Assembly: GCA_964646765.1 (NCBI GenBank)
Contig: CAZYIA010000003.1
Coordinates: 2,815 to 66,814 of the forward strand
Source: an uncultured Candidatus Saccharibacteria bacterium
Lineage (GTDB): Bacteria; Patescibacteriota; Minisyncoccia; Phycocordibacterales; UBA9973
DNA: 64,000 bases
Reading direction: 5' to 3'
The first letter of the stretch is position 1. The number at the start of each line of letters is the position of its first letter. This document shows positions 17,454-55,832 of the stretch, in pieces. A program made the position numbers and the translations under genes. Under the pieces are notes generated by a model. It worked only from the letters and a program-made list of their open reading frames with translations. It was not told where the DNA came from and searched no databases.

Positions 17454-17572
17454 TCGAAATCTCGCAAAAAATCAAAAAGCACTATCGGGTGCTTTTTGAT
17501 TTTAGCCTGTAAAAACTGGACGAAATGGCAAAAATACCGTATAGTAGCAACGCTTTTAGCTTAAAAGGCTAT

Positions 17573-17647
17573 GGTCCCGTCGTTCAATGGATAGGACGCA
17601 AGATTGCGGATCTTGCAATGCAGGTTCGATTCCTGCCGGGATCACCA
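17573..17647 (+). tRNA. tRNA-Arg (anticodon GCG as read; CCA encoded)
   Basis: Cloverleaf GGTCCCG-TC-GTTC-AATGGATA-GGAC-G-CAAGA-TTGCGGA-TCTTG-CAAT-GCAGG-TTCGATT-CCTGC-CGGGATC-A-CCA. The anticodon loop TTGCGGA gives GCG. The overlapping track ORF 17525..17935 is spurious over this region. Confidence 0.7.
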
Positions 17648-17653
17648 GAGACA

Positions 17654-17680
17654 AAAAGACTGCCCTGCGGCAGTCTTTTT
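17654..17680 (+). terminator. Rho-independent terminator after tRNA-Arg
   Basis: agactgcc-ctgc-ggcagtct stem followed by ttttt. Confidence 0.7.
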
Positions 17681-17683
17681 ACT

Positions 17684-17935
17684 GTGTGTGATGACTACAG
17701 CTATGTTTCGCGAGCACGCGAAACCGCGAGGGGCGGGCTGCGAAAATTTCGAGCGACTGGCGAGAAATTATTTGTAGCCACACTAACTGATACGGGATCA
17801 CCTGGTCATGAATCAAGTAAATTAGGACCAAAGACAAAAGCAGCCCTGATTAAGTTCCAAAAGGCTCACGGTATTCTTCCAGCGACCGGAAGATTTGGGC
17901 CAAGAACAAGAGCTTACTTCAATCAGCATCCATAG
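17684..17935 (+). CDS. Possible small ORF/gene remnant with a peptidoglycan-binding-domain-like C-terminus (GTG start; no signal peptide)
   Basis: The 3' portion of track ORF 17525..17935 downstream of the tRNA encodes ..LGPKTKAALIKFQKAHGILPATGRFGPRTRAYFN, a PG_binding_1-type motif also present at the C-terminus of CDS 42822..45614. There is no ATG; a GTG lies at about 17684. Confidence 0.25.
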   Translation: MCDDYSYVSRARETARGGLRKFRATGEKLFVATLTDTGSPGHESSKLGPKTKAALIKFQKAHGILPATGRFGPRTRAYFNQHP

Positions 17936-19344: not shown

Positions 19345-20586
19345 TTAGTGCATACTCGGCATGTTTTCAGTAGGGGAAGTCGGTGTAACTGCACTAAAAA
19401 TGTCGGGTTGCGGATCACCAGTTACTTCAAGCACAGCCCAGGCACCTTTATTCATGCGGGCGAGGGCGTGATCAACCAAAAGATATTTGCCGGGAACGTT
19501 TACGGTAAACTCAACGATACTTGCGCCACCAGGGAGCACAGCTGTCGTTTGCACATTGTGTTCTACGGCACCACCAATATTTGCTTCCGGATACACCGTG
19601 TCAAAAATTTCGCCAATAATGTGGAATGAAGAAATGAGATTCACTCCGCCGTTACCAACATACATGCGGATTTTATCGCCTACTTTGGCGTGCATGCGTG
19701 GAGCACTTTCGATTTTACCGTTAAAGGTTACATAGTTTGGATGACCATCAAGAAGGGCTTGCGAATCAAAGGCTACCAACCCTTTTTTACCCAGCTGACC
19801 TTTGGTGTAGAGTTCACCCTGCATGACATAAAATTCCTTATCTACTTTTGGTAGTCCATTTTCTGGTTCAACCAAAATCATGCCGTACTGTCCGTGTGAG
19901 TTATGGGTTGAAACGTTTGGCATCGCGCAGTGGTAGACATAGAGTCCTGGGTTGAGTGCTTTCCAGCGGAAGGTTTTTGTTTCGCCAGGCATAACTTCGG
20001 TAAGGGACGCGCCACCACCTTGGCCGGTAACAGCATGAAGATCAATGTTATGATGGTGAAGATTTTCTGGAGCGTTGGTGAGTGTAAGCTCAATAGTGTC
20101 ACCTTCACGAACATGGAGCATTGGCCCCGGCACCTGTTTATCGAAGGTCCAGTAGTTGTAGTAAATACCAGGAGCAACTTCAGCAATAACTTCCTTAACG
20201 GTTAGTTCTATATGCACAACACCATCTTTGTCGGGGGTAGCAAGCGGTGGAACAGCATTTGGATCAGCGCCAATGTCAGCTACACGTTCAAACTTATGTT
20301 CGTATAAAAAGAAATCGAGAATTTTAGAGAAGGGGATAGAAGGAGGAACGCCACCAGGTGCATGAGAGTGCATAAAAGCCGGCATAGCAAAATCTGGGGG
20401 ATAGGTTTCGTGTGAGAACCAACCGGCGAAAAACGCGATGACAAAAAGTATGAGGGGAATAAGGACTGCTCGATAGGTAAAGAATCGCAAAAAGTGCGTA
20501 TGGCGCTCAAGCTGAATGAGAATAAATATAATGGCAATAGCTCCAACTACAGCCGAGAATAATTCAAGGAGAAGATAGGTAAGCAT
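19345..20586 (-). CDS. Copper-containing nitrite reductase (NirK)-type multicopper oxidase, membrane-anchored
   Basis: HHHNIDLHAVTGQGGG and YVYHCAMP...HNSHGQYGMILVEP match the NirK type-1/type-2 Cu ligand motifs (HNIDFHAATG; YVYHCAP..M). The N-terminus has two TM helices. Confidence 0.7.
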   Translation of the reverse strand: MLTYLLLELFSAVVGAIAIIFILIQLERHTHFLRFFTYRAVLIPLILFVIAFFAGWFSHETYPPDFAMPAFMHSHAPGGVPPSIPFSKILDFFLYEHKFERVADIGADPNAVPPLATPDKDGVVHIELTVKEVIAEVAPGIYYNYWTFDKQVPGPMLHVREGDTIELTLTNAPENLHHHNIDLHAVTGQGGGASLTEVMPGETKTFRWKALNPGLYVYHCAMPNVSTHNSHGQYGMILVEPENGLPKVDKEFYVMQGELYTKGQLGKKGLVAFDSQALLDGHPNYVTFNGKIESAPRMHAKVGDKIRMYVGNGGVNLISSFHIIGEIFDTVYPEANIGGAVEHNVQTTAVLPGGASIVEFTVNVPGKYLLVDHALARMNKGAWAVLEVTGDPQPDIFSAVTPTSPTENMPSMH

Positions 20587-20590
20587 ATAA

Positions 20591-21136
20591 CTATGAACTT
20601 ATGAATAAGGTACCTGGTTGCCAAAAAGTTCCGAGATGCTTGAGGACAATACGATCAAAGCCAATGTAGCCGGCAGTTTTCCAAGCTAGGACAAGAAAAA
20701 TTTCAATAACAAACATGACGGGGTTAAGTGAAACCGCTCCAGCAAGCAGAAAATTTAAATTCATAAAAAGACCAAAGCCAGCGGCGATGCCAGTGAAGAT
20801 TCCTAGAATAAGGGCGATTCCAATAAGAACTTCTCCATAGGCTACAAGATGTGACCAGAGAGCGGGGTGAGATAGGACAACCGTTTTTAAAAAAGTTGCA
20901 TACCAACCTTGTACATCAGGATGGGCACCCTGGGTTTTTTCAAGAGCACCTTGAACAAACCCCGAAAGAGCTTTTCCGGCGTCACTTCCCACCCATGCAG
21001 GGTTTGAAATTTTATTCCACCCCGCCATAATCCACTCGTATCCGACATACAGGCGAGCCAAAAACCATACCCAGGCAACTTTTGTGTTACCAAATAAAAA
21101 CTTTGCGATCGGCGCATCATCAAATTCTATATACAT
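20591..21136 (-). CDS. DoxX-family membrane protein
   Basis: Four TM helices. The N-region KVAWVWFLARLYVGYEWIMAGWNKI is typical of DoxX. It lies immediately downstream (minus strand) of the NirK-like gene. Confidence 0.6.
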   Translation of the reverse strand: MYIEFDDAPIAKFLFGNTKVAWVWFLARLYVGYEWIMAGWNKISNPAWVGSDAGKALSGFVQGALEKTQGAHPDVQGWYATFLKTVVLSHPALWSHLVAYGEVLIGIALILGIFTGIAAGFGLFMNLNFLLAGAVSLNPVMFVIEIFLVLAWKTAGYIGFDRIVLKHLGTFWQPGTLFISS

Positions 21137-21258
21137 AGTAGTTCTAAGGTTAGTATACCTAATAAATTGACACTATGAGGTAAGGATTTCCAAAACTATA
21201 GTTAGAGTTATCCACTGTTGCCTCAGCTTATTGCCGGGCGTATACTCTTAACCCAACT

Positions 21259-21278
21259 AGTTTCGAAGTTTCGAAACT
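21259..21278. promoter_or_regulatory. Candidate operator palindrome upstream of the membrane protein-nrdJ-pduO operon
   Basis: agtttcgaa-gt-ttcgaaact, perfect 9-bp inverted repeat arms, about 60 nt upstream of ATG 21339. Confidence 0.3.
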
Positions 21279-21338
21279 ATGCAAATAGTATAGCAGCCTT
21301 TCCTTAGTCGGGAAAGGGATAAGCAAAGAGTTGCCACT

Positions 21339-21878
21339 ATGGAAACGTATCGTACAAATTGGTTCAAGTTCATTCTTGGATTCGTGGTCTGTCTTCTTAT
21401 TCGTCTTATCCCGTTCCGACCGCCAAATATTGAGCCGCTCCTGGCAACTCAAATGCCGTTTTCAAAAGCGTATGGCGGCTTTGCTGGGTTTACTTTCGCC
21501 TTCCTTTCGATTGTGCTCTTTGATCTTATCAGCGGAAAGGTTGGCATCTGGACATTTATTACCGCAATCGCCTACGGCCTATTAGGGCTCTGGGCAGGGA
21601 AGTATTTTCAGTATCGGAGTAATAAGCCACTCCAGTATGTTGGCTTTGCCGTTATTGCCACGATTATCTACGATGCGGTTACGGGTCTATCGGTTGGACC
21701 ACTCTTTTTTCACCAGCCTTTCATGGAGGCACTTATCGGCCAAATACCGTTTACCGGCATGCACCTCTTAGGCAATATTCTTTTTGCAGCTGTCCTTTCA
21801 CCACTTCTTTATACCTACGTAATAACGAACGAACGGTTCGAGAGTGGACGATTATTTGCTTTTAAACCAAGCGTATGA
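21339..21878 (+). CDS. Small polytopic membrane protein, possibly an ECF-type vitamin transporter S-component (candidate cobalamin uptake)
   Basis: 179 aa, five or six TM helices. It overlaps the nrdJ start by 4 nt (operonic). The S-component assignment is inference from size, topology and B12 context. Confidence 0.3.
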   Translation: METYRTNWFKFILGFVVCLLIRLIPFRPPNIEPLLATQMPFSKAYGGFAGFTFAFLSIVLFDLISGKVGIWTFITAIAYGLLGLWAGKYFQYRSNKPLQYVGFAVIATIIYDAVTGLSVGPLFFHQPFMEALIGQIPFTGMHLLGNILFAAVLSPLLYTYVITNERFESGRLFAFKPSV

Positions 21879-24148
21879 GGACAACTCAAAAAAATACCGA
21901 AATCTTAAAAACTCAAAAACGAAATGGTACATTGGTGCCATTTGATCTAGCCAGAATCACTCGAGCCATTATTCGAGCGATGGAAGCTACTGGTGAGGGC
22001 GGTGAAGAAGAAGCAAAAAAAGTTACCAGTGAGGTACTTGCTTCACTTATCAAATTAAAAAATGAGCGTCGTGAAAAACATTCAGTGCCGCATGTTGAAA
22101 CTATCCAAGATGTTGTTGAAAATGAACTGATTGCTCTTGGATTTATTCAAACAGCCAAGGCGTATATTTTGTATCGCAACGAGCGTGCGCGTGTTCGAAA
22201 AGAACGTGGTGACGTGCCAGAGCGCGTACGAGAACTGACTCTTGAGAGTAAGAAGTATTTTCGTAACCCTCTTGCAGAGTTTGTATATTATCGCACTTAC
22301 GCACGCTGGATTCCCGAAGAAGCTCGTCGGGAAACCTGGATTGAAACAGTTGATCGCTATATCAATTTCATGAAAGAAAATATCGGCGTTGGATTTACTG
22401 ATGGAGAGTACGCAGAAATACGTCAAACAATTTTAAAACAAGAAGCGATGCCTTCAATGCGGCTTCTTCAGTTTGCTGGACGTGCTGCTCGCCGCACGAA
22501 TGTCTGTGCTTACAACTGTTCATTTATTGCCCCCAAAACATTTCAGGATTTTGCTGAGATTATGTACATCTCAATGTGTGGCACCGGTGTTGGATTTTCA
22601 GTTGAAAGCGAAAATATTCAAGCGCTACCCCAAATTCAGAAGCAAACCGGAACACTGTTGCCGCGCTACATTGTTCCCGACACCAAAGAAGGCTGGGCAG
22701 ATGCATTGGCCTTTGGTTTAGAAACTTGGTTTTCTGGTTCTGACGTCGAGTTTGATTACTCGTTTATTCGGCCAGCCGGCTCTCGTCTAAAAACGATGGG
22801 GGGAAAGAGTTCTGGCCCGGAACCGCTTCGCTCACTTTTAACCTTTGCTCGTGAGCGTATTTTGCGACGACAAGGACGACGATTATCAAACCTCGATGCC
22901 CACGACATTATCTGCAAAATCGGTGAGTGCGTGGTGGCTGGTGGGGTGCGTCGTAGCGCAATGATTTCTCTCTCTGATCTCGATGATGAAGCAATTCGTG
23001 ACTCAAAGAAAGGTCAGTTCTATATAAATGAAGCACAGCGCATGCTCGCGAATAACTCGGCAGTGTACAACACAAAACCAAGCGCGGCTGAATTTTTGGA
23101 TGAATGGACAGCCCTCGTAAAATCGGGTAGTGGTGAGCGCGGTATTTTTAATCGAGGAAGTTTACCAAAAACGTTGCCGAAGCGCAGGCTTTCACAGTGG
23201 AGTGACGCGCTACCTTCATTTGGCACCAATCCGTGTGGAGAAATTATTTTACAGTCAAAACAGTTCTGTAATTTAACCGAAGTTATTGCTCGAGCCGAAG
23301 ATACCGAAGAAACACTTATTCGAAAAGTGCGAGTAGCCACCATGCTCGGCACCTATCAATCAGTGCTCACGTACTTTCCTTACCTTTCTCGTGAATGGAA
23401 AAAGAATTGTGAAAAAGAACGATTACTCGGAGTCTCAATTACTGGCCAGTGGGACTGTGCTCTTGCCCGTGATCCGAAAATGCTCGAAAAATTGAAAGCA
23501 GTAGCAATTGAAACAAACAAAAAATACGCTAAGCGATTTGGTGTTAATCAATCAACCTGCATTACCTGTGTAAAACCATCAGGCACTGTTTCGCAAACTG
23601 TAGATTGTGCTTCAGGTATGCATCCGCGACATGCCCCGTACTATATTCGTCGCATTCGTATTTCGGCAACTGACGCTCTATTTAAGATGCTGAAAGATCA
23701 GGGGGTACCGTACCATCCTGAAGTTGGCCAAGCACTCGGGACAGCGAGTACCTATGTTTTAGAATTTCCAGTGCAAGCACCCAAAGGAGCACTCTGTAAA
23801 GATGATATTTCTGCTATTACTCAGCTCGAGCATTGGAAGGTGGTGAAGGAACACTACACCGAACATAATCCATCGGTCACTATTTCAGTGGGGGAAGATG
23901 AATGGATTAAAGTAGGTAATTGGGTGTATGAAAACTGGGATCTTGTTGGTGGCCTTTCATTTTTACCGCGCTCAAACCACGTCTATCAATTAGCACCGTA
24001 TGAAGCGATTACCAAAGAGCGTTACGAAGAACTGCTTGAAAAAGTGCGACATATCGATTTTTCAAAAATTGTAACGTACGAGGCCGAAGATGAAACCGAA
24101 GTTAAACGCGAGCTTGCCTGCGCCGGTGGCGTGTGCGAAATCGCCTAA
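21875..24148 (+). CDS. nrdJ: Adenosylcobalamin-dependent (class II) ribonucleotide reductase NrdJ with an N-terminal ATP-cone
   Basis: 757 aa. ATP-cone-like N-terminus (KRNGTLVPFDLARITRAI) and active-site region NPCGEIILQSKQFCNLTEV typical of class II RNR. Confidence 0.8.
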   Translation: MRTTQKNTEILKTQKRNGTLVPFDLARITRAIIRAMEATGEGGEEEAKKVTSEVLASLIKLKNERREKHSVPHVETIQDVVENELIALGFIQTAKAYILYRNERARVRKERGDVPERVRELTLESKKYFRNPLAEFVYYRTYARWIPEEARRETWIETVDRYINFMKENIGVGFTDGEYAEIRQTILKQEAMPSMRLLQFAGRAARRTNVCAYNCSFIAPKTFQDFAEIMYISMCGTGVGFSVESENIQALPQIQKQTGTLLPRYIVPDTKEGWADALAFGLETWFSGSDVEFDYSFIRPAGSRLKTMGGKSSGPEPLRSLLTFARERILRRQGRRLSNLDAHDIICKIGECVVAGGVRRSAMISLSDLDDEAIRDSKKGQFYINEAQRMLANNSAVYNTKPSAAEFLDEWTALVKSGSGERGIFNRGSLPKTLPKRRLSQWSDALPSFGTNPCGEIILQSKQFCNLTEVIARAEDTEETLIRKVRVATMLGTYQSVLTYFPYLSREWKKNCEKERLLGVSITGQWDCALARDPKMLEKLKAVAIETNKKYAKRFGVNQSTCITCVKPSGTVSQTVDCASGMHPRHAPYYIRRIRISATDALFKMLKDQGVPYHPEVGQALGTASTYVLEFPVQAPKGALCKDDISAITQLEHWKVVKEHYTEHNPSVTISVGEDEWIKVGNWVYENWDLVGGLSFLPRSNHVYQLAPYEAITKERYEELLEKVRHIDFSKIVTYEAEDETEVKRELACAGGVCEIA

Positions 24149-24152
24149 GTAT

Positions 24153-24725
24153 ATGCTCTACACACGAAAAGGAGATGGTGGTACGACAAAACTTTTTACC
24201 ACGCCGCAGGGTGTGCGGATAGGGAAGGATTCAAAAATCTTTGAGGCGCTTGGCACTGTAGATGAACTCAATGCTTCGCTTGGATATGCTAAGGCGCTTT
24301 GTCGAAATGAACAGCTCACGGTACTCATTGGATTACAGCGTATGCCGTATGAGAAAGTGCTTACTGAACTTCAAAATACACTCTTCACTATCCAGGCGGA
24401 GATCGCTGGGTCAGATATGCATCCAACAGTGCATACGATAGAGTACGTTGAAAATATTATTTTTCAAATCGAGACACTCCTTCCACCAGTTCAATCATTT
24501 GTAGTTCCCGGGGGAACCCTAGCCGCAAGCTATCTTGATATTTGCCGGACCATTGCGCGAAGAGCTGAGCGACTTCTTGTGACAGTATCTCTTGGGAAAT
24601 ACTGTGAAGTATCGCCAGAAACACTTCAATTTATGAACCGACTCTCGAGTGTCCTCTACGCGTTAGCTCGCTTTGGTAACTATACTGGAGGCATAAGTGA
24701 AGACCCTCCTCACTACCATACTTAA
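24153..24725 (+). CDS. PduO-type ATP:cob(I)alamin adenosyltransferase
   Basis: ATG at 24153, 5 nt after the nrdJ stop. MLYTRKGDGGTTKLF...FEALGTVDELNASLGYA matches the PduO/MMAB N-terminal signature. Confidence 0.75.
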   Translation: MLYTRKGDGGTTKLFTTPQGVRIGKDSKIFEALGTVDELNASLGYAKALCRNEQLTVLIGLQRMPYEKVLTELQNTLFTIQAEIAGSDMHPTVHTIEYVENIIFQIETLLPPVQSFVVPGGTLAASYLDICRTIARRAERLLVTVSLGKYCEVSPETLQFMNRLSSVLYALARFGNYTGGISEDPPHYHT

Positions 24726-24733
24726 TTACCTAC

Positions 24734-25180
24734 ATGAGATCACTTTTTCGTACATCAGTATGGTTCTTCGGTGTCACCAGTATTGTGATTATTGGCTTAC
24801 TGTATTTGGTCGGCATCCAAAATGTTTCAGCGACTGCTTCAGAAAAAACGACTATCGCTGTGCCAATAGTTTTACAGCAACAGACTCTTTCAAAGAAATT
24901 AGCCTCTATTACTCTCATTGCAGGGAATACAAATATTGTAATCCCTTTACCCTCTAAGGCTACGCTCTATGAAACCTTACGTATCGCGCAAAAGGCAGGG
25001 ATGCTCCAATTTTCCGGGCGAATGTATCCAGGCTTAGGCTTCTTTATTACTGCTATTGGCTCATTACATGAAGAACATGGTCGGCACCTCTTCTATTATA
25101 AGAACGGTATTCCTGCCACGGTTGGTATTTCTTCATATGTCCCACATAACGGAGATCTCATAACATGGCAACTAAAGTAG
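24734..25180 (+). CDS. DUF4430-domain protein (transcobalamin beta-domain-like, putative B12-binding), membrane-anchored
   Basis: N-terminal TM, then the DUF4430 signature ..LFYYKNGIPATVGISSYVPHNGDLITWQL (W.Y..NG...G....L.DGD.I.W). Confidence 0.55.
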   Translation: MRSLFRTSVWFFGVTSIVIIGLLYLVGIQNVSATASEKTTIAVPIVLQQQTLSKKLASITLIAGNTNIVIPLPSKATLYETLRIAQKAGMLQFSGRMYPGLGFFITAIGSLHEEHGRHLFYYKNGIPATVGISSYVPHNGDLITWQLK

Positions 25181-27153
25181 TCACTATGAAAAACAATTTT
25201 TATCTATCACTATTTTTTAGTATCTTACTTTTTTTCTCAGTTCCTTCTATTACTAAGGCAGCTGATAGTGATGTAATTCAAGATACATCCGATTCAGGAA
25301 CGTCTCAAACTGTAACTGATGATACAACCACCAATGATATAACCCCAGATACTCCTCCGGCACCGTCCAATCCTCTAAGCTTTTCTGAAACAGTAATTGT
25401 TCGAGCAGGGGACAATGTGCTTTTTAATGGGGTAGTTGCTATTCCAGAAGAAGGAACTATCGAAGCACTTGATGCTACGGGAACATTACATTTTGTACCA
25501 ACGACAAGCGCTCTTGGATTACTTGAAGCTGTCGATGCAGTAAGTGATACTTTTTCTATTTCTGATCTTGAGTACTACGCTTCTTTTGGTTCTTTATATC
25601 TGAAATGTATTACTTCTAGTACCAATCAGTCATTATGTGACAACTGGCAGTTTGTCGTAAACGGGTCAACACCCACCGTTGGTATAGATAAAACGATGCT
25701 CTCTGACGGAGAAACAGTTGGATTTTATTTTGGCTCGCCACACCAGCTTATTTTTCCAGGAAGTACGTATCATGCAGGTGACACGATTACCGTGACTGCA
25801 GAGAACTATAACTACGAGGATAATACCTGGAGCCCACTCTCTGGAGTAACAGTGAGTGCAACAACACCTAATGCTAGTGACCCGTATACTCCTACTGTTG
25901 TTAGTGGTGGGATAACTGATACTGAAGGACACGCTTCATTTATTGTTGCAGATCCAGGGACATACGACGTTGGTATCCTTGAAGATTATTATTTCCCGTC
26001 ATATCCACTTACGGTTATATCACCTCAAAACACAGCACCTGCGCCAGTGATTATTTCTGGGGGAGGAGTCCCGCTAGAGATAATTGATAAAAAATTTGAT
26101 CCCCAAAAGGCAGCCCAATTTCTTATACAAAATTTTGACAATACTGAGACAGCAGACGGAGAACTCTACGGTGACTGGGCCATTATTGGTTTATCGGCTA
26201 CTGACCTATCCCCAGAATTGAAACAACAATTGCGTGACTATCTGTGTCGCACTAAAGCAGTAAGTCCACTACTCACTGATACTGAACGGCATGCCATGGC
26301 GATCCTTTCGCTTGGGGGTGACCCATATACTTTTTGCGGAGAAAACTATATTCAAGCAATTTTGCAGAACTTTGATGGTTCGCAATTTGGCGATAACTCT
26401 CTCGTCAATGATGATATTTTTGCGCTCATTCCACTTCTGGCTTCTGGCTACACTCTTAAAGATGCCAACATTCAAGCAGATACTACATTTATTCTTAACC
26501 ACCAAAAAGCAGATGGCTCGTGGGAAGAAAGTGTTGACCTCACTTCCGCTGCGGTCCAAGCTCTGTATCCTCTTGAGACAGTACCTGAGGTGGCAGTGGC
26601 AATTCAGCATGGAGTTGCCTATATTGATAGTTTTCAAAAAGAGAATGGAAGTTTCGATGATTCAGTTTTTTCTACCGCCTGGGCACTCCAATCAAAACAG
26701 ATAGTTCCTAACGAAGATAGTTCTTTGACGAATAGCCTGGCATATTTTGGCTCACTTCAGTCAGATGACGGAGGCCTACTCCAAACTGGAGAAAGCATGC
26801 ATCAGCGAATATGGGCAACAAGTTATGCATTGCCTGCCACCCTTCAAAAATCATGGATTACGATTCTTGTTCCCGCTCAAAGACCAGCTGAAATAACGAT
26901 CGATGTACCAAAAATAATTTCCCAACCTCCTGCTGATACTGCTCAAAAGAAACATACCAACCAAAAATATTCAACACAAACAGTGTCAGTATCTTCAAAG
27001 ACTCCCAAGGAAACTAAAAGTACGACCCCACAAGAAAAAGAATCTGTAAAACTTTCAGCTACAGTACTAGCAAGTGACGCCTCGCGTAGTTTCTCATTTA
27101 AGAGATTTTTCCAGTCACTCGTATCCGCCATACTCTCTAGGGTTGCTTTTTAG
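25165..27153 (+). CDS. Secreted surface protein with a DUF4430 (B12-binding beta) domain plus a squalene-cyclase/prenyltransferase-like alpha-alpha toroid (transcobalamin/intrinsic-factor-like)
   Basis: Signal peptide. NWQFVVNGSTPTVGIDKTMLSDGETVGFYFG is a DUF4430 signature. Downstream repeats (GDWAIIGLSAT; DDIFALIPLLASG; DGSWEESVDLTSAAVQALY; NGSFDDSVFSTAWALQ; DDGGL) are characteristic of alpha6/alpha6 toroid folds. The C-terminus is S/T/K-rich. Confidence 0.55.
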   Translation: MATKVVTMKNNFYLSLFFSILLFFSVPSITKAADSDVIQDTSDSGTSQTVTDDTTTNDITPDTPPAPSNPLSFSETVIVRAGDNVLFNGVVAIPEEGTIEALDATGTLHFVPTTSALGLLEAVDAVSDTFSISDLEYYASFGSLYLKCITSSTNQSLCDNWQFVVNGSTPTVGIDKTMLSDGETVGFYFGSPHQLIFPGSTYHAGDTITVTAENYNYEDNTWSPLSGVTVSATTPNASDPYTPTVVSGGITDTEGHASFIVADPGTYDVGILEDYYFPSYPLTVISPQNTAPAPVIISGGGVPLEIIDKKFDPQKAAQFLIQNFDNTETADGELYGDWAIIGLSATDLSPELKQQLRDYLCRTKAVSPLLTDTERHAMAILSLGGDPYTFCGENYIQAILQNFDGSQFGDNSLVNDDIFALIPLLASGYTLKDANIQADTTFILNHQKADGSWEESVDLTSAAVQALYPLETVPEVAVAIQHGVAYIDSFQKENGSFDDSVFSTAWALQSKQIVPNEDSSLTNSLAYFGSLQSDDGGLLQTGESMHQRIWATSYALPATLQKSWITILVPAQRPAEITIDVPKIISQPPADTAQKKHTNQKYSTQTVSVSSKTPKETKSTTPQEKESVKLSATVLASDASRSFSFKRFFQSLVSAILSRVAF

Positions 27154-27159
27154 AAAAAC

Positions 27160-27501
27160 TTGTTGCATACTTTCGAAACTAGTATGGCAACAAAAGAGCG
27201 CAAAATAAAACAGCCCCTTCCGCGTACAGCCTACCGACGAAACGCCGAAACTTACAAGATTTTGGCTAATTCAAAGCGTCTCGAAATTTTAAATTTACTC
27301 CGTGAACAGGAAATGTCAGTTGAAGAGTTGGTTAAGATTCTTGGCGTAGCTAAAGCAAATGTCTCGCAGCATCTCGCACTTTTACGTCACGCACATCTTG
27401 TAACGGTACATCGCAAAGGCTTAAATGCGTACTACAATATCATTGACCCTCGTATTGTTGAGCCATGTCGAATTCTCCACGCTCTCGCGCATAATCGCTA
27501 G
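27160..27501 (+). CDS. ArsR/SmtB-family HTH transcriptional regulator
   Basis: NSKRLEILNLLREQEMSVEELVKILGVAKANVSQHLALLRHAHLV. Confidence 0.7.
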   Translation: MLHTFETSMATKERKIKQPLPRTAYRRNAETYKILANSKRLEILNLLREQEMSVEELVKILGVAKANVSQHLALLRHAHLVTVHRKGLNAYYNIIDPRIVEPCRILHALAHNR

Positions 27502-27967
27502 TGAGTATGGAGGGTCTCGCTGTTAAGGCTAAAGCCTTGCTTGAAAAAATCCCATACATCACGCTTACTACAGTTTCAGAAAAAGGGGATCCGCACAACT
27601 CACCAGTATATGCTGTACACGATGAGAAGTATGCCTTTTTCTGGAATTCTTCCGTAGAATCTGTGCACTCAAAAAATATTGCAGCGAACGGAAAAGTATC
27701 TATTGTTGTCTACGATCAACTGTCCTTGAAGGACAAGGGTTTGGCGTCTACATGGATGGCATTGCAGAAGAGCTTACCGGTGAAGATCTTGAGCATGTAA
27801 TTGCAATTTTCTACGCGAAAAAAGGAAAAGAACCTGCGCCAACTAATGTATTTATGGCCCCATCGCTTCGCCGAATGTATCGAGTGGTACCAACAAAAAT
27901 TTGGGTAAATACTTACGAAAAAGGCCGCACGCCGCCTGATGGTAAGGCCGAAGTTCGCCTGGTTTAG
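27501..27967 (+). pseudogene. Pyridoxamine-5'-phosphate-oxidase-like (FMN-binding split-barrel) gene interrupted by a frameshift near 27735-27750
   Basis: Track ORFs 27501..27800 and 27752..27967 are consecutive halves of one PNPOx-like protein in different frames (..VSIVVYDQLS | GFGVYMDGIAEELTGEDLEHV..). This is either a real pseudogene or an assembly indel. Confidence 0.5.
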
Positions 27968-49219: not shown

Positions 49220-50134
49220 TTATACTCCCAGTGCTTCGCACAACAGCGCCATGCGGATATACAAGCCATTTTGTGGCTGGCGGAAGTAGGCGGCGCGCTT
49301 GTCGGCATCGATTGCGGTGTCGATTTCGTTTACTCGCGGTAGGGGGTGCATGATGATTGCGGTTGGTTTCATCAAGTCTAAATGAGGAGCTTTAAGGAGG
49401 AACATATCTTTCACTCGCTCGTAATCTTCTTTGTTTTCAAAACGTTCTTTTTGAACGCGCGTCATATATACAACATCAGCGGCTTTGAGCGCTTCGTCGA
49501 GATTTTCGGTTTCGGTAAATGAAACTCCTTTTTCATAAAGTTCGCTCGTTAATTCTTCTGGTACGCGAAGTTCTTTTGGCGAAACAAAGATAAATGAGTT
49601 GTTTGAATATTCAATAAGAAGAGGAACAAGGGAATGAAGTGTGCGGCTATTTTTTAGGTCGCCAACAAACACGACCGTTAAGTTTTCGAGCCGGCCTTGT
49701 TCTTTTTGAATGGTGTACAGATCAAGAAAACCTTGTGAAGGATGTTGGTTGGCGCCATCACCAGCGTTTAATACTGGTTTGGTTGCCACTTTTGCTGCTG
49801 CTTCGGCAGAACCAATTTTTGGATGGCGCATGACGATGGCGTCAGCATATGACGAGAGCATGCGCGCAGTGTCTTCGATGGTTTCGCCTTTAAATGCAGA
49901 AGAACTCTCGGCAGCATTTTCAACGGTGATGATTTGGCCGCCTAAGCGAAGCACAGCCGTTTCAAATGAGAGACGAGTGCGGGTTGAAGGCTCAAAGAAA
50001 ACTGAAGCGACAATTTTGCCTTTCAAAAGTTCAGGCAGCGTGCCGTTTGCGTGTTCAACTTCAAGCGCTTTTGCTCGAGCGAGAATGTTCTCGACGTCGC
50101 TTTTTGAAAACTGGCTGGTGGAGAGAATATGCAT
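49220..50134 (-). CDS. pyrB: Aspartate carbamoyltransferase catalytic subunit
   Basis: STRTR and HPLP motifs. 304 aa. Confidence 0.9.
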   Translation of the reverse strand: MHILSTSQFSKSDVENILARAKALEVEHANGTLPELLKGKIVASVFFEPSTRTRLSFETAVLRLGGQIITVENAAESSSAFKGETIEDTARMLSSYADAIVMRHPKIGSAEAAAKVATKPVLNAGDGANQHPSQGFLDLYTIQKEQGRLENLTVVFVGDLKNSRTLHSLVPLLIEYSNNSFIFVSPKELRVPEELTSELYEKGVSFTETENLDEALKAADVVYMTRVQKERFENKEDYERVKDMFLLKAPHLDLMKPTAIIMHPLPRVNEIDTAIDADKRAAYFRQPQNGLYIRMALLCEALGV

Positions 50135-50135
50135 G

Positions 50136-53100
50136 TTAGCTTACGTATTCTTTGTATGACTTAATTTCGAGATCATCGATAGAGTAGTTGGAGAGAGCTT
50201 TTACGAAGGCACGGGCGAGGTGAAGATCGGTGAAGAGGGGAATTTGGTTGTCGACAGCCGCGCGGCGAATCTGGAAACCATCGGTTGTTTTCTTACCTGC
50301 TTTTATGCGTCCGGTCTCACTTAAATTTACCACAAAGCCAACATTCTTGCCGTTTACAAGATCGAGGAAGTTTGGTGATGGCTCAGAAGCCTTGCGAACC
50401 ATATTACAAGCCACGCCTTGGCCTTTTAAGAAGTTTGCCGTGCCTTCGGTTGCTGAAATGTTATAGCCAAGGGTAACGAGCTGGCGGGCTGCTTCGATAA
50501 ATTTGGCTTTGTTGATTTCACCGCCCAGAGAAAGGAGAACATCTTTTTTACGATAGTCGAAAGTGTGCGCACTCATAATCGATTTCAAAAGTGCTTCGTC
50601 GTAGTCCTTGCCGAAACAAGCCACTTCGCCGGTTGATGACATTTCGACGCGGAGAATTGGGTCGGCACCCAAGAGGCGAGAGAAGGAAAACTGCGGTGAT
50701 TTTACGATCACGCTTCGTGGATATTCGTAGTCGTGCTTTTTAGCTTTGCCAAAGAAACTGTCGACAGCCATGCCTGGAAAGTTTACGTCCATAGCTTTTG
50801 AAAGCATGGGGAAGGTTCGAGATGCGCGAAGGTTCACTTCGATAACTGATGGCTTGTTATCTTTCACCAAGAACTGAATATTGAACGGGCCAGTGATCGA
50901 AAGTTCTTTAGCAATTTTTTTCGAGATATCGCGAATCTGAAATTCAGTTGAAGCGTACACACGTTGCGTAGGGAAGACGATCGTGGCGTCACCAGAGTGC
51001 ACACCAGCGTTTTCAACGTGTTCAGAAATTCCGTACACCATCAGTTCGCCGTTCTGGGCTACCGCATCAAACTCAAGTTCCTTAGCGTTCTCGACGAATT
51101 TCGAAATCGTTACTGGATGCTCTGGGCCAAGCACTGCTGCTTTGCCAATAAAGGCTTCAAGCTGTTCTTGGTTATAACAGACACTCATGGCCGCACCAGA
51201 GAGCACGTATGATGGACGAACGAGTACAGGGTAGCCAACAGCGTCAGTAAATTTTTTGGCTTCTTCTACCGTGCTGAAACTCTGCCACTTTGGCTGAAGA
51301 ATTTCGAGCTTATCGAGCATGGCCGAGAAAGCGTTACGATCTTCAGCGCGGTCGATGTTGGCGGCAGTTGTACCAAGAATAGGGAAGCCTTCTTTTGAAA
51401 GTTTCTTAGCGAGGTTGTTTGGACGCTGGCCACCCACTGAAATAATCAGGCCGCCAGAATGTTCGAACTCAAAAATGTCAGCAACGGTTTCAAATGAGAG
51501 GTTTTCGAAGTAGAGGCGATCAGAGATATCGTAGTCGGTTGAAACAGTTTCTGGATTACAGTTTACGATGACTGAAAGTTTTTTGTGGCGCTTAAGAGCG
51601 AGGGCTGCATTCACACATGACCAGTCGAATTCAACTGAAGAACCAATGTGGTATGGGCCAGAACCAAGCACGGTGATGGCGCTTTTACCAAGCGGCTTCA
51701 CATCATGGTGATTGCCGTGATAGGTGAGGTAGAGGTAGTTGGTTTTTGCTGGCACTTCGCCGGCGAGGGTATCGATTTGGAAAACGTTCGGCATGATGCC
51801 AAGTTTCTTACGGAGCTTTCGGACTTCGAATTCAGTTTTGTGGAGGAGAGCGCCGATTTTTTTATCAGAGAAACCAAGCTGTTTTAAGTTTGTGAGATTT
51901 TCTTTATCGAGTTTTTTAGTAACGAGCAGATCTTTTTCTGCTTCAACAATTGCCTGCACGCGGTAGAGGAACCATGGATCAACACCAGTGATTTTATAGA
52001 GCTCTTCGACTGACTTTCCGCGTTTCAAACTTTCGGCGATAGCAAAGAGTCGCTTCGGAGTTGGTGTTTCCAAAAACTTTTTCAGCGTTTCATCGCCAAA
52101 GCCGTTATCGGTTACGCTTTCAATCGCACCGCTTTGCATGCGCACCGCCTTTTGTAGTGCTTCTTCAAAGTTTCGGCCAATAGCCATTACTTCACCAACC
52201 GATTTCATTGCGCTACCAATTTTCTCATCAGCGCCAACAAATTTTTCCAAGTCCCAGCGTGGGAATTTAACCACCACATAGTCGAGGGCTGGCTCGAAGA
52301 AGCTTTGAGTAACTTGAGTGATTTTGTTTTTGATATCGAGGAGGCTGTAGCCAAGAGCGAGTTTTGCGGCAACGTAGGCGAGAGGGTAGCCCGTAGCTTT
52401 TGATGCAAGCGCTGAAGAGCGGGAGAGACGAGCGTTTACTTCGATAACATAGTAGTCGAGTTCGCCATTTTTTGGGTTTGGATTTACGGCGTACTGCACG
52501 TTACATTCGCCAACAATGCCGAGCGACTGCACTATCTTAATAGAAGCGAGGCGAAGGCCATGATATTCGTCGTTTGAAAGGGTCTGCGATGGAGCGATAA
52601 CAATTGAGTCGCCAGTGTGAATACCGAGCGGATCAAAGTTTTCCATGTTACATACCGTCACCGTATTGTTGAATGAATCACGTACCACTTCGTACTCAAG
52701 TTCTTTAAAGTGGTGAAGATACTTTTCAATAAGTACTTGTGGCGAAACTGCGAGCGCACCTTCTACAATTTCTTTGAGTTCTGCTTCTGTGTGAGCCACA
52801 CCTGACTTTTGGCCGCCGAGAGTAAATGCTGCGCGTACCATAACCGGCAAACCGATTTGAGTAGCCAGTTTTTGTGCCTCTACTAAAGTTGTAGCTGCCC
52901 CAGAAGGAGCAGTTGGAATACCGATAGCACGGAGGTGGTCAGCAAAGAGCTGGCGGTCTTCGGTAAGTTCAATGGAGTCAACCGGTGTCCCGAGTACTGC
53001 GACCCCATATTTTTTGAGAATGCCTTTTTCTCGAAGAGCTAAACCACAGTTAAGTGCTGTTTGGCCGCCGAATGAGAGCATGATGCCGTCCGGCTTTTCT

Positions 53101-53330
53101 TTAGCAATTACTTTTTCAACGAAATAGGTGTTCACTGGTAAAAAGTACACTTCGTCAGCAAGTTCTTTCGACGTTTGAAATGTCGCAATGTTTGGGTTGA
53201 TGAGAATACTTTTGATTCCTTCTTCTTTGAGCGCCTTGATTGCTTGTGAGCCCGAATAATCGAATTCGCCGGCTTCACCAATTTTAAGCGCGCCACTTCC
53301 AAGCACTAGAATTTTTTTGAATTTTTTCAT
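50136..53330 (-). CDS. carB: Carbamoyl-phosphate synthase large subunit
   Basis: 1064 aa. Duplicated ATP-grasp halves and an MGS-like C-terminus. 1-nt intergenic gaps to carA and pyrB. Confidence 0.95.
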   Translation of the reverse strand: MKKFKKILVLGSGALKIGEAGEFDYSGSQAIKALKEEGIKSILINPNIATFQTSKELADEVYFLPVNTYFVEKVIAKEKPDGIMLSFGGQTALNCGLALREKGILKKYGVAVLGTPVDSIELTEDRQLFADHLRAIGIPTAPSGAATTLVEAQKLATQIGLPVMVRAAFTLGGQKSGVAHTEAELKEIVEGALAVSPQVLIEKYLHHFKELEYEVVRDSFNNTVTVCNMENFDPLGIHTGDSIVIAPSQTLSNDEYHGLRLASIKIVQSLGIVGECNVQYAVNPNPKNGELDYYVIEVNARLSRSSALASKATGYPLAYVAAKLALGYSLLDIKNKITQVTQSFFEPALDYVVVKFPRWDLEKFVGADEKIGSAMKSVGEVMAIGRNFEEALQKAVRMQSGAIESVTDNGFGDETLKKFLETPTPKRLFAIAESLKRGKSVEELYKITGVDPWFLYRVQAIVEAEKDLLVTKKLDKENLTNLKQLGFSDKKIGALLHKTEFEVRKLRKKLGIMPNVFQIDTLAGEVPAKTNYLYLTYHGNHHDVKPLGKSAITVLGSGPYHIGSSVEFDWSCVNAALALKRHKKLSVIVNCNPETVSTDYDISDRLYFENLSFETVADIFEFEHSGGLIISVGGQRPNNLAKKLSKEGFPILGTTAANIDRAEDRNAFSAMLDKLEILQPKWQSFSTVEEAKKFTDAVGYPVLVRPSYVLSGAAMSVCYNQEQLEAFIGKAAVLGPEHPVTISKFVENAKELEFDAVAQNGELMVYGISEHVENAGVHSGDATIVFPTQRVYASTEFQIRDISKKIAKELSITGPFNIQFLVKDNKPSVIEVNLRASRTFPMLSKAMDVNFPGMAVDSFFGKAKKHDYEYPRSVIVKSPQFSFSRLLGADPILRVEMSSTGEVACFGKDYDEALLKSIMSAHTFDYRKKDVLLSLGGEINKAKFIEAARQLVTLGYNISATEGTANFLKGQGVACNMVRKASEPSPNFLDLVNGKNVGFVVNLSETGRIKAGKKTTDGFQIRRAAVDNQIPLFTDLHLARAFVKALSNYSIDDLEIKSYKEYVS

Positions 53331-53331
53331 C

Positions 53332-54411
53332 TTATTTCTTTGCGGACTTTTTAGCCGGAGCGACGAGGCCAGCTTTTTCTAAGAAGTAATCAAAGATCCA
53401 GTCAGTATCGAGTGGGCCAGGGGAGCTTTCAGGGTGGAACTGTACACTCATAAATGGAAGTTTTTCGTGAATGATTCCTTCGTTCGTGCCGTCGTTTCCG
53501 TTATAGAACCATTCTTTAAATCCTTTCGGAATTTTCTTTACTGCAAAGCCGTGGTTTTGGGTGGTGAGGTAGGCTTGCTTGGTTCCGGAGAGTACCGCTG
53601 GTTGGTTTTGGCTGCGGTGGCCGAATTTTAGTTTGTAGGTAGAGCCGCCAGACGCGAGTGCTAAAATTTGGTTACCAAGACAAATACCGAGGGTTGGAAT
53701 TTTCTTAGCCACAATCTTTTTTACGTTCGCAATTGTTGCTTTTACTTTCGTTGGATCACCAGGACCGTTTGAAATGAGTACTGCATCAACAGGGAATGGG
53801 AGTGCGGTGACGTCGGTATCCCAAGGAACGACAACCACTTTTAATCCGCGAGCGAGTAAACGGCGAACCATGTTGCGCTTTTCGCCACAGTCGATAACCA
53901 CAATTGTTTTTGCGCCGTTACCTTGCGAGACAATTTCTTTGGTTGAAACTTCAGCAGAAAGGTTACGAACGTTTGGATCTTCAAACGGAATGTTTTTTCC
54001 GCCTGCCTGAATTTTGCCAAGCATCACACCTTTAGTGCGGAGTTTTTGAGTAAGGCCGCGAGTGTCTTTTATTTCAAGCGCTGGAATACCTTCAGCTTTG
54101 AACCAATCAGAGAGAGTGCGGAGGGAAGCATGATGCGATGGTGTGCCCACATAGGAAGAAACGATGAGACCGGCAACTTGGATTTTTGAAGATTCCCAAC
54201 TTTCTGGTTTCGGTACGCCATAGTTTCCAACAAGTGGAAATGTCATAACCAAAATTTGCCCGCGGAATGATGGATCGGTTAACGCTTCGGGGTAGCCCAC
54301 CATACCGGTAGCAAATACCACTTCGCCCGCCATCGAAACATCGGCGCCGAAACTCATTCCTTCTAATGTTGTGCCGTCTTTTAAGACCAGCGTTCCTTTT
54401 TTAGTTGCCAT
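53332..54411 (-). CDS. carA: Carbamoyl-phosphate synthase small (glutamine amidotransferase) subunit
   Basis: GATase triad context (GICLGNQIL...HRSQNQP...FHPE). Confidence 0.9.
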   Translation of the reverse strand: MATKKGTLVLKDGTTLEGMSFGADVSMAGEVVFATGMVGYPEALTDPSFRGQILVMTFPLVGNYGVPKPESWESSKIQVAGLIVSSYVGTPSHHASLRTLSDWFKAEGIPALEIKDTRGLTQKLRTKGVMLGKIQAGGKNIPFEDPNVRNLSAEVSTKEIVSQGNGAKTIVVIDCGEKRNMVRRLLARGLKVVVVPWDTDVTALPFPVDAVLISNGPGDPTKVKATIANVKKIVAKKIPTLGICLGNQILALASGGSTYKLKFGHRSQNQPAVLSGTKQAYLTTQNHGFAVKKIPKGFKEWFYNGNDGTNEGIIHEKLPFMSVQFHPESSPGPLDTDWIFDYFLEKAGLVAPAKKSAKK

Positions 54412-55630: not shown

Positions 55631-55832
55631 ATATTTGGGACAAAAAAATAGCCCCCACAACGGGGACTTCCTCGATACAATCTGCGGAGCTCTTCGCCTC
55701 GGCATTACGACACATTGGGTACGATGATAGCATCTTTCGTTAGTATTGCAAGCAAAAGCAGGTTTTTATATATCTTTAAAATACATTGAAAAATAAGGGT
55801 TAAATTGGATATTTAGTAATCCCCATGCTACT

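Follow-up and report, generated by a model that had tools for sequence, protein, structure and literature searches.

We analysed a 64-kb stretch of DNA (contig CAZYIA010000003.1, from an uncultured Candidatus Saccharibacteria bacterium) belonging to the Patescibacteria, ultra-small bacteria also called the candidate phyla radiation (CPR); this full stretch is referred to as the window, and all coordinates are window positions. The subject of this work is a cluster of five consecutive + strand genes that encode a small membrane protein of the energy-coupling factor (ECF) S-component type, a class II ribonucleotide reductase (NrdJ), a PduO-type adenosyltransferase and two proteins with a DUF4430 domain, of 148 and 662 amino acids (aa), respectively (Table 1). 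A preliminary description of this DNA had listed the five genes as tightly packed or overlapping, and the open reading frame (ORF) list and its translations place all five exactly where that description had put them. The functional unit reaches further, however, to an ArsR-family gene (27184-27501) that had been missed. The same DNA is present in Logan assemblies SRR11845633/4.

Table 1 Features of the cluster and of its control regions, in window positions
Feature	Position	Strand	Size or basis
DnaA-box-like element TTATCCACT, abutting the -35 hexamer	21208..21216	+	8/9 positions of TTATNCACA
Promoter-like site: -35 TTGCCT, 17-nt spacer, -10 TATACT	21218..21246	+	consensus scan
Four-half-site operator in an 8-bp register (TAGTT tcg AAGTT tcga AACTA tgc AAATA)	21258..21287		contains the palindrome 21260-21279
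5' untranslated region hairpin CCTTTCCT / tagtc / GGGAAAGG	21297..21317	+	RNAfold
ECF-type S-component (CbrT-like), putative cobalamin-binding/translocating membrane protein	21339..21878	+	179 aa
Class II (adenosylcobalamin-dependent) ribonucleotide reductase, RTPR-like, N-terminal ATP-cone	21875..24148	+	757 aa
PduO-type ATP:cob(I)alamin adenosyltransferase	24153..24725 (longest ORF 24090)	+	PF01923, TIGR00636
Small N-terminally anchored DUF4430 (transcobalamin beta-domain / SLBB) protein	24734..25180	+	148 aa
Surface-tethered transcobalamin-like protein, DUF4430 + Ig-like + toroid	25165..27153	+	662 aa
Second operator-like site TACTTTCGAAACTA, 3 nt before the arsR ATG	27168..27181		motif scan
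ArsR/SmtB-family helix-turn-helix regulator, proposed operon repressor	27184..27501 (longest ORF from TTG 27160)	+	PF01022, NF033788

The S-component and nrdJ ORFs share 4 nucleotides (nt; ATGA). The longest pduO ORF runs 59 nt into the 3' end of nrdJ; because its Pfam match begins only at residue 23 and an ATG is found 4 nt past the nrdJ stop, the likely start of pduO is at 24153. The 148-aa ORF begins 8 nt downstream of pduO. Since the N-termini of homologues of the 662-aa protein read MKK or MKN, its true start is probably ATG 25186, 5 nt past the preceding stop, and not the ORF start listed in Table 1.

NrdJ contains an ATP-cone (PF03477, 2e-20), an RNR_Alpha domain, the class II insertion domain RNR-II_ins_dom (PF21995, 34 bits for a cut-off of 27) and the barrel (PF02867, 28 bits for a cut-off of 23.9), and its best match in the PDB is the L. 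leichmannii reductase RTPR (1L1L, 3e-55). The insertion domain and the 1L1L match both bear out the initial proposal that this is a B12-dependent class II enzyme. Its best NCBIfam model is TIGR02505 (RTPR); because the score (319.3 bits) falls narrowly under the cut-off (340.05), we refer to the reductase as RTPR-like and not as a strict equivalog. The translation carries FGTNPCGEI, which includes NPCGEI, and a C-terminal CAGGVC (CAGGVCEIA). We take NPCGE to be the catalytic thiyl-radical loop and the C-terminal cysteine pair to be the redox pair of ribonucleotide reductases. The predicted family of the adenosyltransferase is unambiguous: it scores far over the cut-offs of both PF01923 (1.2e-43, 149.5 bits, cut-off 24) and TIGR00636 (148.1 bits, cut-off 108.45), as expected of the PduO type proposed at the outset.

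The product of the first gene had been suggested to be an ECF S-component, and three lines of evidence agree with this. It scores above threshold with PF07155 (32.2 bits, cut-off 26.7) and with DUF6580 (27.5 bits, cut-off 27), and homologues carry the NCBI name "ECF transporter S component". Its AlphaFold2 (AF2) model is all-helical (predicted local distance difference test, pLDDT, 83; predicted template modelling score, pTM, 0.78), and in a Foldseek search of the PDB the top ~22 matches were all S-components (RibU, FolT, PanT, ThiT and BioY; template modelling (TM) scores 0.5-0.69), RibU being first. Single-sequence phmmer searches of the PDB returned noise only, for this protein as for the 148-aa and 662-aa proteins. 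A profile built from 25 homologues found one match in the PDB, 6fnp_A, the S-component of ECF-CbrT from L. delbrueckii (E=0.0087, residues 16-150), and hhalign against residues 20-158 of CbrT, rebuilt from the profile alignment, gave E=1.4e-4, a probability of 52% and 21% identity over 132 columns. Four motifs that are invariant in the CPR family are common to CbrT: a Cys in the first transmembrane helix (TM1), PN[IV][EQ]P, G[IV]WT and HxxGN. CbrT itself belongs to PF12822 and the window protein to PF07155 and DUF6580, while some homologues of the latter also match PF12822. TM1 of the window protein reads WFKFILGFVVCLLIR; it contains an invariant G14 and C18 (a small-xxx-small motif, GxxxC) and no AxxxA, the TM1 motif for docking of an S-component on EcfT.

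With the S-component as query, at least 530 genomes, each representing one species, were retrieved. Essentially all of them are Patescibacteria, with homologues from Nomurabacteria, Paceibacteria, Magasanikbacteria and similar groups, and the family is 54-72% identical; the best 80 loci were analysed. Of 78 evaluable loci, 73 have nrdJ directly after the S-component gene; pduO comes next in 55 of 65, and the pair of DUF4430 and toroid genes is present in 24 of the 44 loci that are fully evaluable. Denoting the S-component S, nrdJ J, pduO O, the small DUF4430 gene d, the homologue of the 662-aa protein B and arsR R, the architectures in the 44 loci long enough were S-J-O-d-B (12), S-J-O-R (11), S-J-O (6), S-J-O-d-B-R (6), S-J-R (3), S-J-d-B-R (3) and S-J-B-R (3). 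From these counts, the core consists of the S-component, nrdJ and usually pduO, to which the extracellular pair and arsR are added as frequent modules. Median identity to the window proteins is 81% for ArsR, 75% for NrdJ, 62% for the S-component, 46% for PduO and ~40% for the extracellular proteins.

Both downstream proteins had been credited with DUF4430 signatures, and both indeed exceed the gathering score of PF14478 (cut-off 23.8), the 148-aa protein with 39.3 bits over residues 77-147 and the 662-aa protein with 27.8 bits. DUF4430 is the C-terminal beta-domain of transcobalamins (TCN; PMC1796856). BLASTP detected no similarity between the two proteins. The translation of the smaller one has a hydrophobic N-terminal segment. 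The larger one was modelled by AF2 (pLDDT 79.9, pTM 0.50) as a signal peptide, a small beta-domain plus DUF4430/SLBB (~73-190), an Ig-like sandwich (~193-285), an alpha/alpha toroid (~313-567), a low-complexity disordered stalk and a C-terminal helix; signal peptides and C-terminal transmembrane or amphipathic anchors are seen across its family. The toroid repeats GDWAIIGLSAT, DGSWEE and NGSFDD are present in the translation, and in a Foldseek search the toroid had transcobalamin and haptocorrin chains among its best matches (TM(target) 0.43-0.50). The signal peptide and the toroid that had been proposed are thus both supported, and a C-terminal anchor is present as well. The two-domain B12-carrier architecture proposed with them is retained as far as its parts are concerned, toroid and beta-domain; their order (beta, Ig-like, alpha) is the reverse of that in eukaryotic carriers. 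The first ~50 residues of the beta-region (residues ~73-112) weakly resemble YgdR/YgdI small lipoprotein domains (2rd1, E~0.01), which is why we place an extra small beta-domain before DUF4430.

Because transcobalamin, TED domains and class II terpene cyclases all match it, the toroid alone does not discriminate between functions. The full-length family profile of the 662-aa protein retrieved terpene cyclases from the PDB and not transcobalamin. The eukaryotic cobalamin-binding family PF01122 (Cobalamin_bind) is nevertheless matched by 23 of 53 members of the family, 8 of the 9 tested exceeding its cut-off. The idea that the Bacteroides protein BtuH contains DUF4430 was not supported by the text of the paper and was dropped.

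A more direct indication of ligand comes from the DNA in front of the pair in related loci. Counting riboswitches on the coding strand at or above the Rfam gathering score, we found an adenosylcobalamin (AdoCbl, RF01482) or AdoCbl-II (RF01689) riboswitch 56-500 nt before the first match of the pair in 20 of 28 pair-carrying related loci (L005, L014, L024, L028, L030 (13429-13555), L036, L038, L039, L040, L048, L051, L052 (13350-13427), L056, L062, L063, L065, L069, L078, L079 and L082), and in none of four scanned loci that lack the pair. This placement is independent evidence that the DUF4430/toroid pair is a predicted cobalamin-responsive unit, and it is the strongest support for assigning the cluster to B12. 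In the window itself, a cobalamin riboswitch had been thought worth looking for in the leader (21137-21338); covariance-model searches found none there, with no Rfam match of any kind, RF00174, RF01482 and RF01689 included, at E<=1 in 20500-27600, and no cobalamin riboswitch reaches the gathering score anywhere in the window. ArsR is present in each of the 8 loci that have the pair and no riboswitch, as it is in the window, and over evaluable loci only, the counts for ArsR against riboswitch were 12/4/8/0 (Fisher p=0.0013, shared ancestry ignored). With only 8 nt separating pduO from the DUF4430 gene, the pair in the window is fused into the upstream operon.

Upstream of the first gene, the preliminary description had pointed to a perfect palindrome, agtttcgaa-gt-ttcgaaact, as a candidate operator. 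The palindrome is found 59 nt before the ATG and is conserved across genomes; we estimate that ~0.005 perfect 9+9 palindromes (spacer <=6) are expected by chance per 202-nt spacer (~1400 placements x 4^-9). A conserved operator at this position was confirmed, while its symmetry axis and extent had to be corrected: the conserved axis is the CG of the second TTCGAA, and the core, AAGTTTCGAAACTA (21266-21279), lies inside an operator of ~30 bp. The palindrome as originally drawn is a by-product of two adjacent half-sites, each containing TTCGAA. Across loci, the extended operator has the consensus gTTTAgtAGTTgCGAAACTATGCAACTA, and the core AGTT[G/T]CG[A/C]AACT (<=1 mismatch) precedes the ATG of the S-component gene by 20-95 nt; it occurs 53 times in 1.18 Mb, and 38 of these occurrences are within 130 nt upstream of an S-component gene. 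Aligning the upstream regions revealed a conserved AGTTATCCAC element next to the -35, then a -10 box (TATAAT/TATACT), then the operator core; in 37 aligned loci a gTATAaT box is conserved at a distance of 8 nt before the core. Presence of the core and presence of an ArsR gene go together (28/2/4/21, Fisher p=4e-9, shared ancestry ignored).

The - strand encodes a DoxX membrane protein and a multicopper oxidase of two domains (19345-21136), transcribed divergently from the same intergenic region; many loci have a Cu-oxidase or DoxX gene in front of the cluster, and in three a Cu-oxidase gene lies 3' of arsR. Two other identities for the palindrome were rejected. The consensus of NrdR boxes is unrelated to it, and a terminator of the upstream DoxX gene does not fit a site that loci without DoxX also keep, downstream of a + strand -10 box.

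The ArsR-family assignment has scores of 53.4 bits for PF01022 (2.3e-14, cut-off 22) and 81.9 bits for NF033788 (cut-off 55), with matches to solved ArsR/SmtB-family members at 3e-11 to 1e-8. An ArsR gene lies 3' of pduO or of the toroid gene in 34 of the 80 loci, and its product contains a near-invariant IIDPRIVEPCRILH segment. The association with nrdJ was reproduced in an independent collection, metagenome contigs searched with ArsR: of 35 evaluable loci whose ArsR is >=75% identical, 33 have nrdJ upstream in the same orientation. In lineages with 59-67% identity, nrdJ is divergent from arsR, the motif occupies the spacer between the two, and arsR is followed by the DUF4430/toroid genes; this rearranged arrangement was seen in distant Patescibacteria metagenome loci (L148, L149, L151, L156 and L157). 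Because these divergent loci keep the motif in the arsR-nrdJ spacer, the association of ArsR with nrdJ survives rearrangement. We therefore consider it probable, from position and co-occurrence, that the ArsR-family protein acts as a repressor at the operator.

The second operator-like site, just before arsR, is one of only two matches (<=2 mismatches) in the window. At the same position, 11 of 34 loci have a similar site, and TAGTTGCA-n6-TGCAACT is found there in others. The site is inside a conserved TTGCTT-17-CATACT promoter-like stretch, and together the two suggest that arsR may be autoregulated and its transcript near-leaderless. As for what the protein might sense, a canonical metal site was not found: there is no alpha3 CxC, D88 aligns with SmtB D104, R90 replaces His106, and the distal H/E are not conserved. 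As the canonical SmtB alpha5 ligands are lacking, the effector is not predictable. Conserved residues are the single Cys95, His99, His63 and His69, for which a role is putative. Directly after arsR, a small ORF of PNPOx fold (27501-27800) has weak matches to the F420/PPOX-class and HutZ/HugZ heme-utilisation families; it also adjoins the cluster in locus L007, and a tetrapyrrole-related role is conceivable.

Two further elements of the leader are shared with relatives. Of 77 loci, 49 carry the exact sequence TTATCCAC on the coding strand within the 200 nt that precede the S-component gene, where 0.007 occurrences per locus would be expected; 1.18 Mb contain 86 occurrences in all, these 49 included, and the window contains a single one. 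It matches the DnaA-box consensus and is found with or without the ArsR operator. We infer that DnaA may bind here, which suggests a coupling of deoxyribonucleotide supply with replication initiation. Downstream, RNAfold predicts a hairpin at the equivalent leader position in nearly all 33 distinct leaders, although with differing stem sequences, and 14 alignable leaders share a 6-bp consensus stem with compensatory changes in 3 pairs. Support for the putative hairpin is weak to moderate. In one clade its stem pairs with the Shine-Dalgarno sequence.

Together, these results indicate that the cluster is very probably an operon for the capture, import, adenosylation and use of cobalamin in a CPR bacterium. 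The proposed sequence of events is as follows (Table 1). Two extracellular proteins, the anchored 148-aa DUF4430 protein and the stalk-tethered 662-aa protein, would capture cobalamin outside the cell, the corrin presumably being held between a beta-grasp domain and the toroid as in transcobalamin. Cobalamin would be handed to the CbrT-like S-component and cross the membrane by toppling of this subunit, either driven by an ECF module encoded elsewhere or with the S-component working on its own, in the manner of BtuM and certain BioY proteins. In keeping with their family assignments, PduO would adenosylate cob(I)alamin to AdoCbl, and AdoCbl would serve the RTPR-like class II reductase in making deoxyribonucleotides, with the ATP-cone as allosteric on/off control. 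Transcription would start from the sigma-70-like promoter, whose -35 abuts the DnaA-box-like element and whose start region is covered by the four-half-site operator; judging from co-occurrence and position, the protein most likely to bind it is the ArsR-family repressor whose gene closes the operon, and arsR carries an operator-like site of its own. In many relatives AdoCbl would switch off the extracellular pair through the riboswitch; in the window the pair would instead be part of the ArsR-controlled operon. This agrees with the preliminary description in that the cluster reads as a module to scavenge, adenosylate and use B12 for deoxyribonucleotide synthesis. That the module is "self-contained", as was also claimed, is unproven because no ECF energizing module is found in the window or near the 80 related clusters. 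Genes of the cob/cbi type were not found in the 64-kb window, to which that search was confined. One CPR paper scores cobalamin biosynthesis as "not missing" in metagenome-assembled genomes, which we suspect to be a module-scoring artefact caused by pduO.

Several observations weigh against this reading. The S-component might import another micronutrient (riboflavin, a nucleoside or some other precursor) and be a chance neighbour of nrdJ: its best Pfam label is the riboflavin S-component family (PF07155), an NCBIfam riboflavin S-component model gives a weak match (18 bits), RibU leads the Foldseek list, and the relationship to CbrT is weak by both profile search (E=0.0087) and hhalign (probability 52%). 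Yet 73 of 78 loci, across >500 species, preserve a 4-nt overlap that couples its translation to that of nrdJ, cobalamin is the sole nutritional need specific to nrdJ, and L. delbrueckii offers a precedent with the same gene context. Moreover, of the solved S-components in the PDB (RibU, ThiT, BioY, FolT, PanT and others) the family profile finds CbrT only, with which it also shares its invariant motifs. A different substrate is thus very unlikely. Equally, the DUF4430/toroid proteins might stand outside the B12 pathway and bind heme or another ligand such as a polysaccharide or an isoprenoid. Squalene-hopene cyclase, drimenyl-diphosphate synthase and complement TED domains match the toroid at least as well as transcobalamin does, the window protein itself does not reach PF01122 (SQHop_cyclase_C and TED score similarly), and a beta-domain sub-profile run against the PDB did not retrieve transcobalamin, giving spurious designer-Kelch matches instead. 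The inter-domain geometry of the 662-aa model is uncertain at its pTM of 0.50, the pair is missing from ~45% of related clusters, and a homologous pair in L. sakei has been proposed as a heme scavenger (bioRxiv 10.1101/864751). Against such a ligand stand the AdoCbl-class riboswitches upstream of the pair in the 20 related loci, the DUF4430 scores of both proteins, the match of 23 of 53 family members to the eukaryotic cobalamin-binding family and the position of the pair, always between pduO (or nrdJ) and arsR; we regard it as highly improbable.

The question of how transport is energised divides the evidence more equally. EcfT, EcfA and EcfA' were not found in the window nor within 10 kb of any of the 80 related clusters; any ABC ATPase lies within 10 kb in only 9 of the 80 loci, the sole tandem pair being Liv-type and the others MacB- or Liv-type systems. 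An energised ECF mechanism is therefore unsupported here, although a location elsewhere in the genome is the norm for group II modules. The shared ECF modules of Firmicutes are as a rule not encoded next to their S-components (Rodionov 2009, cited in PMC5997447), and because of this the lack of nearby ECF genes is no proof of their absence. The protein could accordingly be a conventional group II subunit that depends on an EcfAA'T module elsewhere in the genome, in which case the island is not self-contained; its canonical S-component fold and the NCBI name of its homologues fit this. Neither the missing neighbours, nor GxxxC in TM1 in place of the EcfT-docking AxxxA, nor the existence of solitary S-component-like B12 transporters (BtuM, PMC6072759) is decisive on the other side, and we put the chances of a solitary S-component and of a module encoded elsewhere at about even. 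With respect to regulation, the statistics linking operator to ArsR and ArsR to riboswitch ignore shared ancestry, and Cu-oxidase or DoxX genes are divergently upstream in many loci, with Cu-oxidase after arsR in three, so that the palindrome might be bound by another regulator or mainly control the divergent genes. This is unlikely, given that the motif keeps its distance to the ATG in ArsR-positive loci without upstream Cu-oxidase/DoxX (for example L004, L007, L008, L010 and L011), lies downstream of the + strand -10 box and follows ArsR in its distribution (28/2/4/21), that ArsR-seeded loci have it either in the promoter of the nrdJ operon or between arsR and a divergent nrdJ, and that a second site is found at arsR itself. 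A bolder version of the cobalamin reading can also be formulated, in which ArsR would be an unrecognised, Patescibacteria-specific repressor of a class II reductase/B12-salvage regulon, would sense cofactor status (cobalamin, cobalt or redox) through its Cys/His segment and replace the AdoCbl riboswitch of sister lineages, and in which the S-component would import B12 without an ECF module; taken as a whole, we think this improbable.

Elsewhere in the window, the - strand at 49220-55705 encodes a block for de novo pyrimidine synthesis: aspartate carbamoyltransferase, the large and small chains of carbamoyl-phosphate synthase and a dihydroorotase-like amidohydrolase. CPR genomes are usually described as lacking nucleotide synthesis, which makes this block notable. 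A 136-aa ORF of the public gene call (17525-17935), with only a weak PG_binding_1 match, overlaps tRNA-Arg(GCG) (17573-17647) on the same strand, and its start is probably miscalled.

Most Patescibacteria are uncultured, and they rely on metabolites from other cells. The operon is conserved in at least 530 species-level genomes, an indication that a B12-dependent reductase supplies the deoxyribonucleotides of much of the Paceibacteria/Nomurabacteria branch; cobalamin must therefore come from the surroundings or from a host, and the need for it is a concrete growth requirement relevant to cultivation. A label of B12 capture can also be given to proteins that are annotated "prenyltransferase/squalene oxidase repeat" or "terpene cyclase/mutase family protein", and the riboswitch placement in relatives is rare independent evidence for the B12-scavenger function predicted in 2007 for DUF4430 plus toroid proteins. 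To our knowledge, almost nothing is known of gene regulation in CPR bacteria, for the study of which the pairing of ArsR with its operator and the distribution of the two complementary to that of the riboswitch provide a defined DNA-protein pair.

The closest known system is the L. delbrueckii cluster nrdJ-cbrS-cbrT-pduO, for which B12 transport by ECF-CbrT is proven (Santos et al. 2018, PMC5997447; PDB 6FNP). It likewise joins an S-component gene to an RTPR-type reductase and PduO, in a B12 auxotroph. In contrast, gene order differs in CPR clusters, the S-component is translationally coupled to nrdJ and only ~21% identical to CbrT (with marginal significance), the reductase has an ATP-cone, transcobalamin-like surface proteins and an ArsR-type operator control are added, and no ECF module is known for CPR genomes. 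BtuM of Thiobacillus denitrificans (Rempel et al. 2018, PMC6072759), from a host without an ECF module, is a solitary, small six-helix B12 transporter of S-component fold, as the window protein may be, and is a possible mechanistic model if CPR genomes lack EcfT. The CPR family carries an invariant Cys and His, a further likeness to BtuM in which their role is putative; unlike with CbrT, its profile gave no match to a BtuM sequence in the PDB.

Among surface proteins, bacterial SLBB plus alpha/alpha-toroid proteins have been predicted to be B12 scavengers (Burroughs, Balaji, Iyer and Aravind 2007, PMC1796856). Those systems share with ours a signal peptide, the fusion of SLBB/DUF4430 to a toroid (in either order), Ig-like domains and a second SLBB gene in the operon, in hosts without B12 synthesis. 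CbiO/CbiQ (ECF module) genes are typical of their operons, whereas our cluster lacks these and has nrdJ and pduO as partners; the lineage here is Patescibacteria, the two DUF4430 domains of the window have no pairwise similarity, and the riboswitch link seen in relatives of our cluster does not appear in the passages of PMC1796856 consulted. Eukaryotic transcobalamin, intrinsic factor and haptocorrin (2BB5, 2BB6, 2V3N, 4KKI) likewise combine an alpha/alpha toroid with a DUF4430 beta-domain. They are soluble, with an N-terminal toroid followed by a C-terminal beta-domain, whereas the 662-aa protein has the reverse order with Ig-like and extra small beta-domains, is membrane- or wall-tethered, is accompanied by a separate second beta-domain protein and is ~15% identical to them. 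It is transcobalamin-like in predicted function and is not a member of the eukaryotic family.

With the ArsR/SmtB repressors HlyU, SmtB, CzrA and PagR, the regulator has in common its winged-helix family, an inverted-repeat operator overlapping the promoter/start site and apparent autoregulation; its target, however, is a ribonucleotide reductase/B12 operon and not metal efflux. In E. coli, nrdAB exemplifies DnaA-box control of ribonucleotide reductase genes. The clusters studied here likewise have a DnaA-box consensus at the promoter of a reductase operon; in this case the reductase is a class II enzyme, the bacteria are CPR, and one box only is present, directly next to the -35. A literature search found no paper describing such a module in CPR/Patescibacteria (cobalamin, ribonucleotide reductase or ECF). 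Thus, the kind of system is already known, while its proposed regulation by a dedicated repressor in place of a B12 riboswitch is new; it also differs from the known systems in its Patescibacteria-wide breadth, in a distinct S-component family translationally coupled to nrdJ with no adjacent ECF genes, and in having an ArsR-type operator and a DnaA-box-like element.

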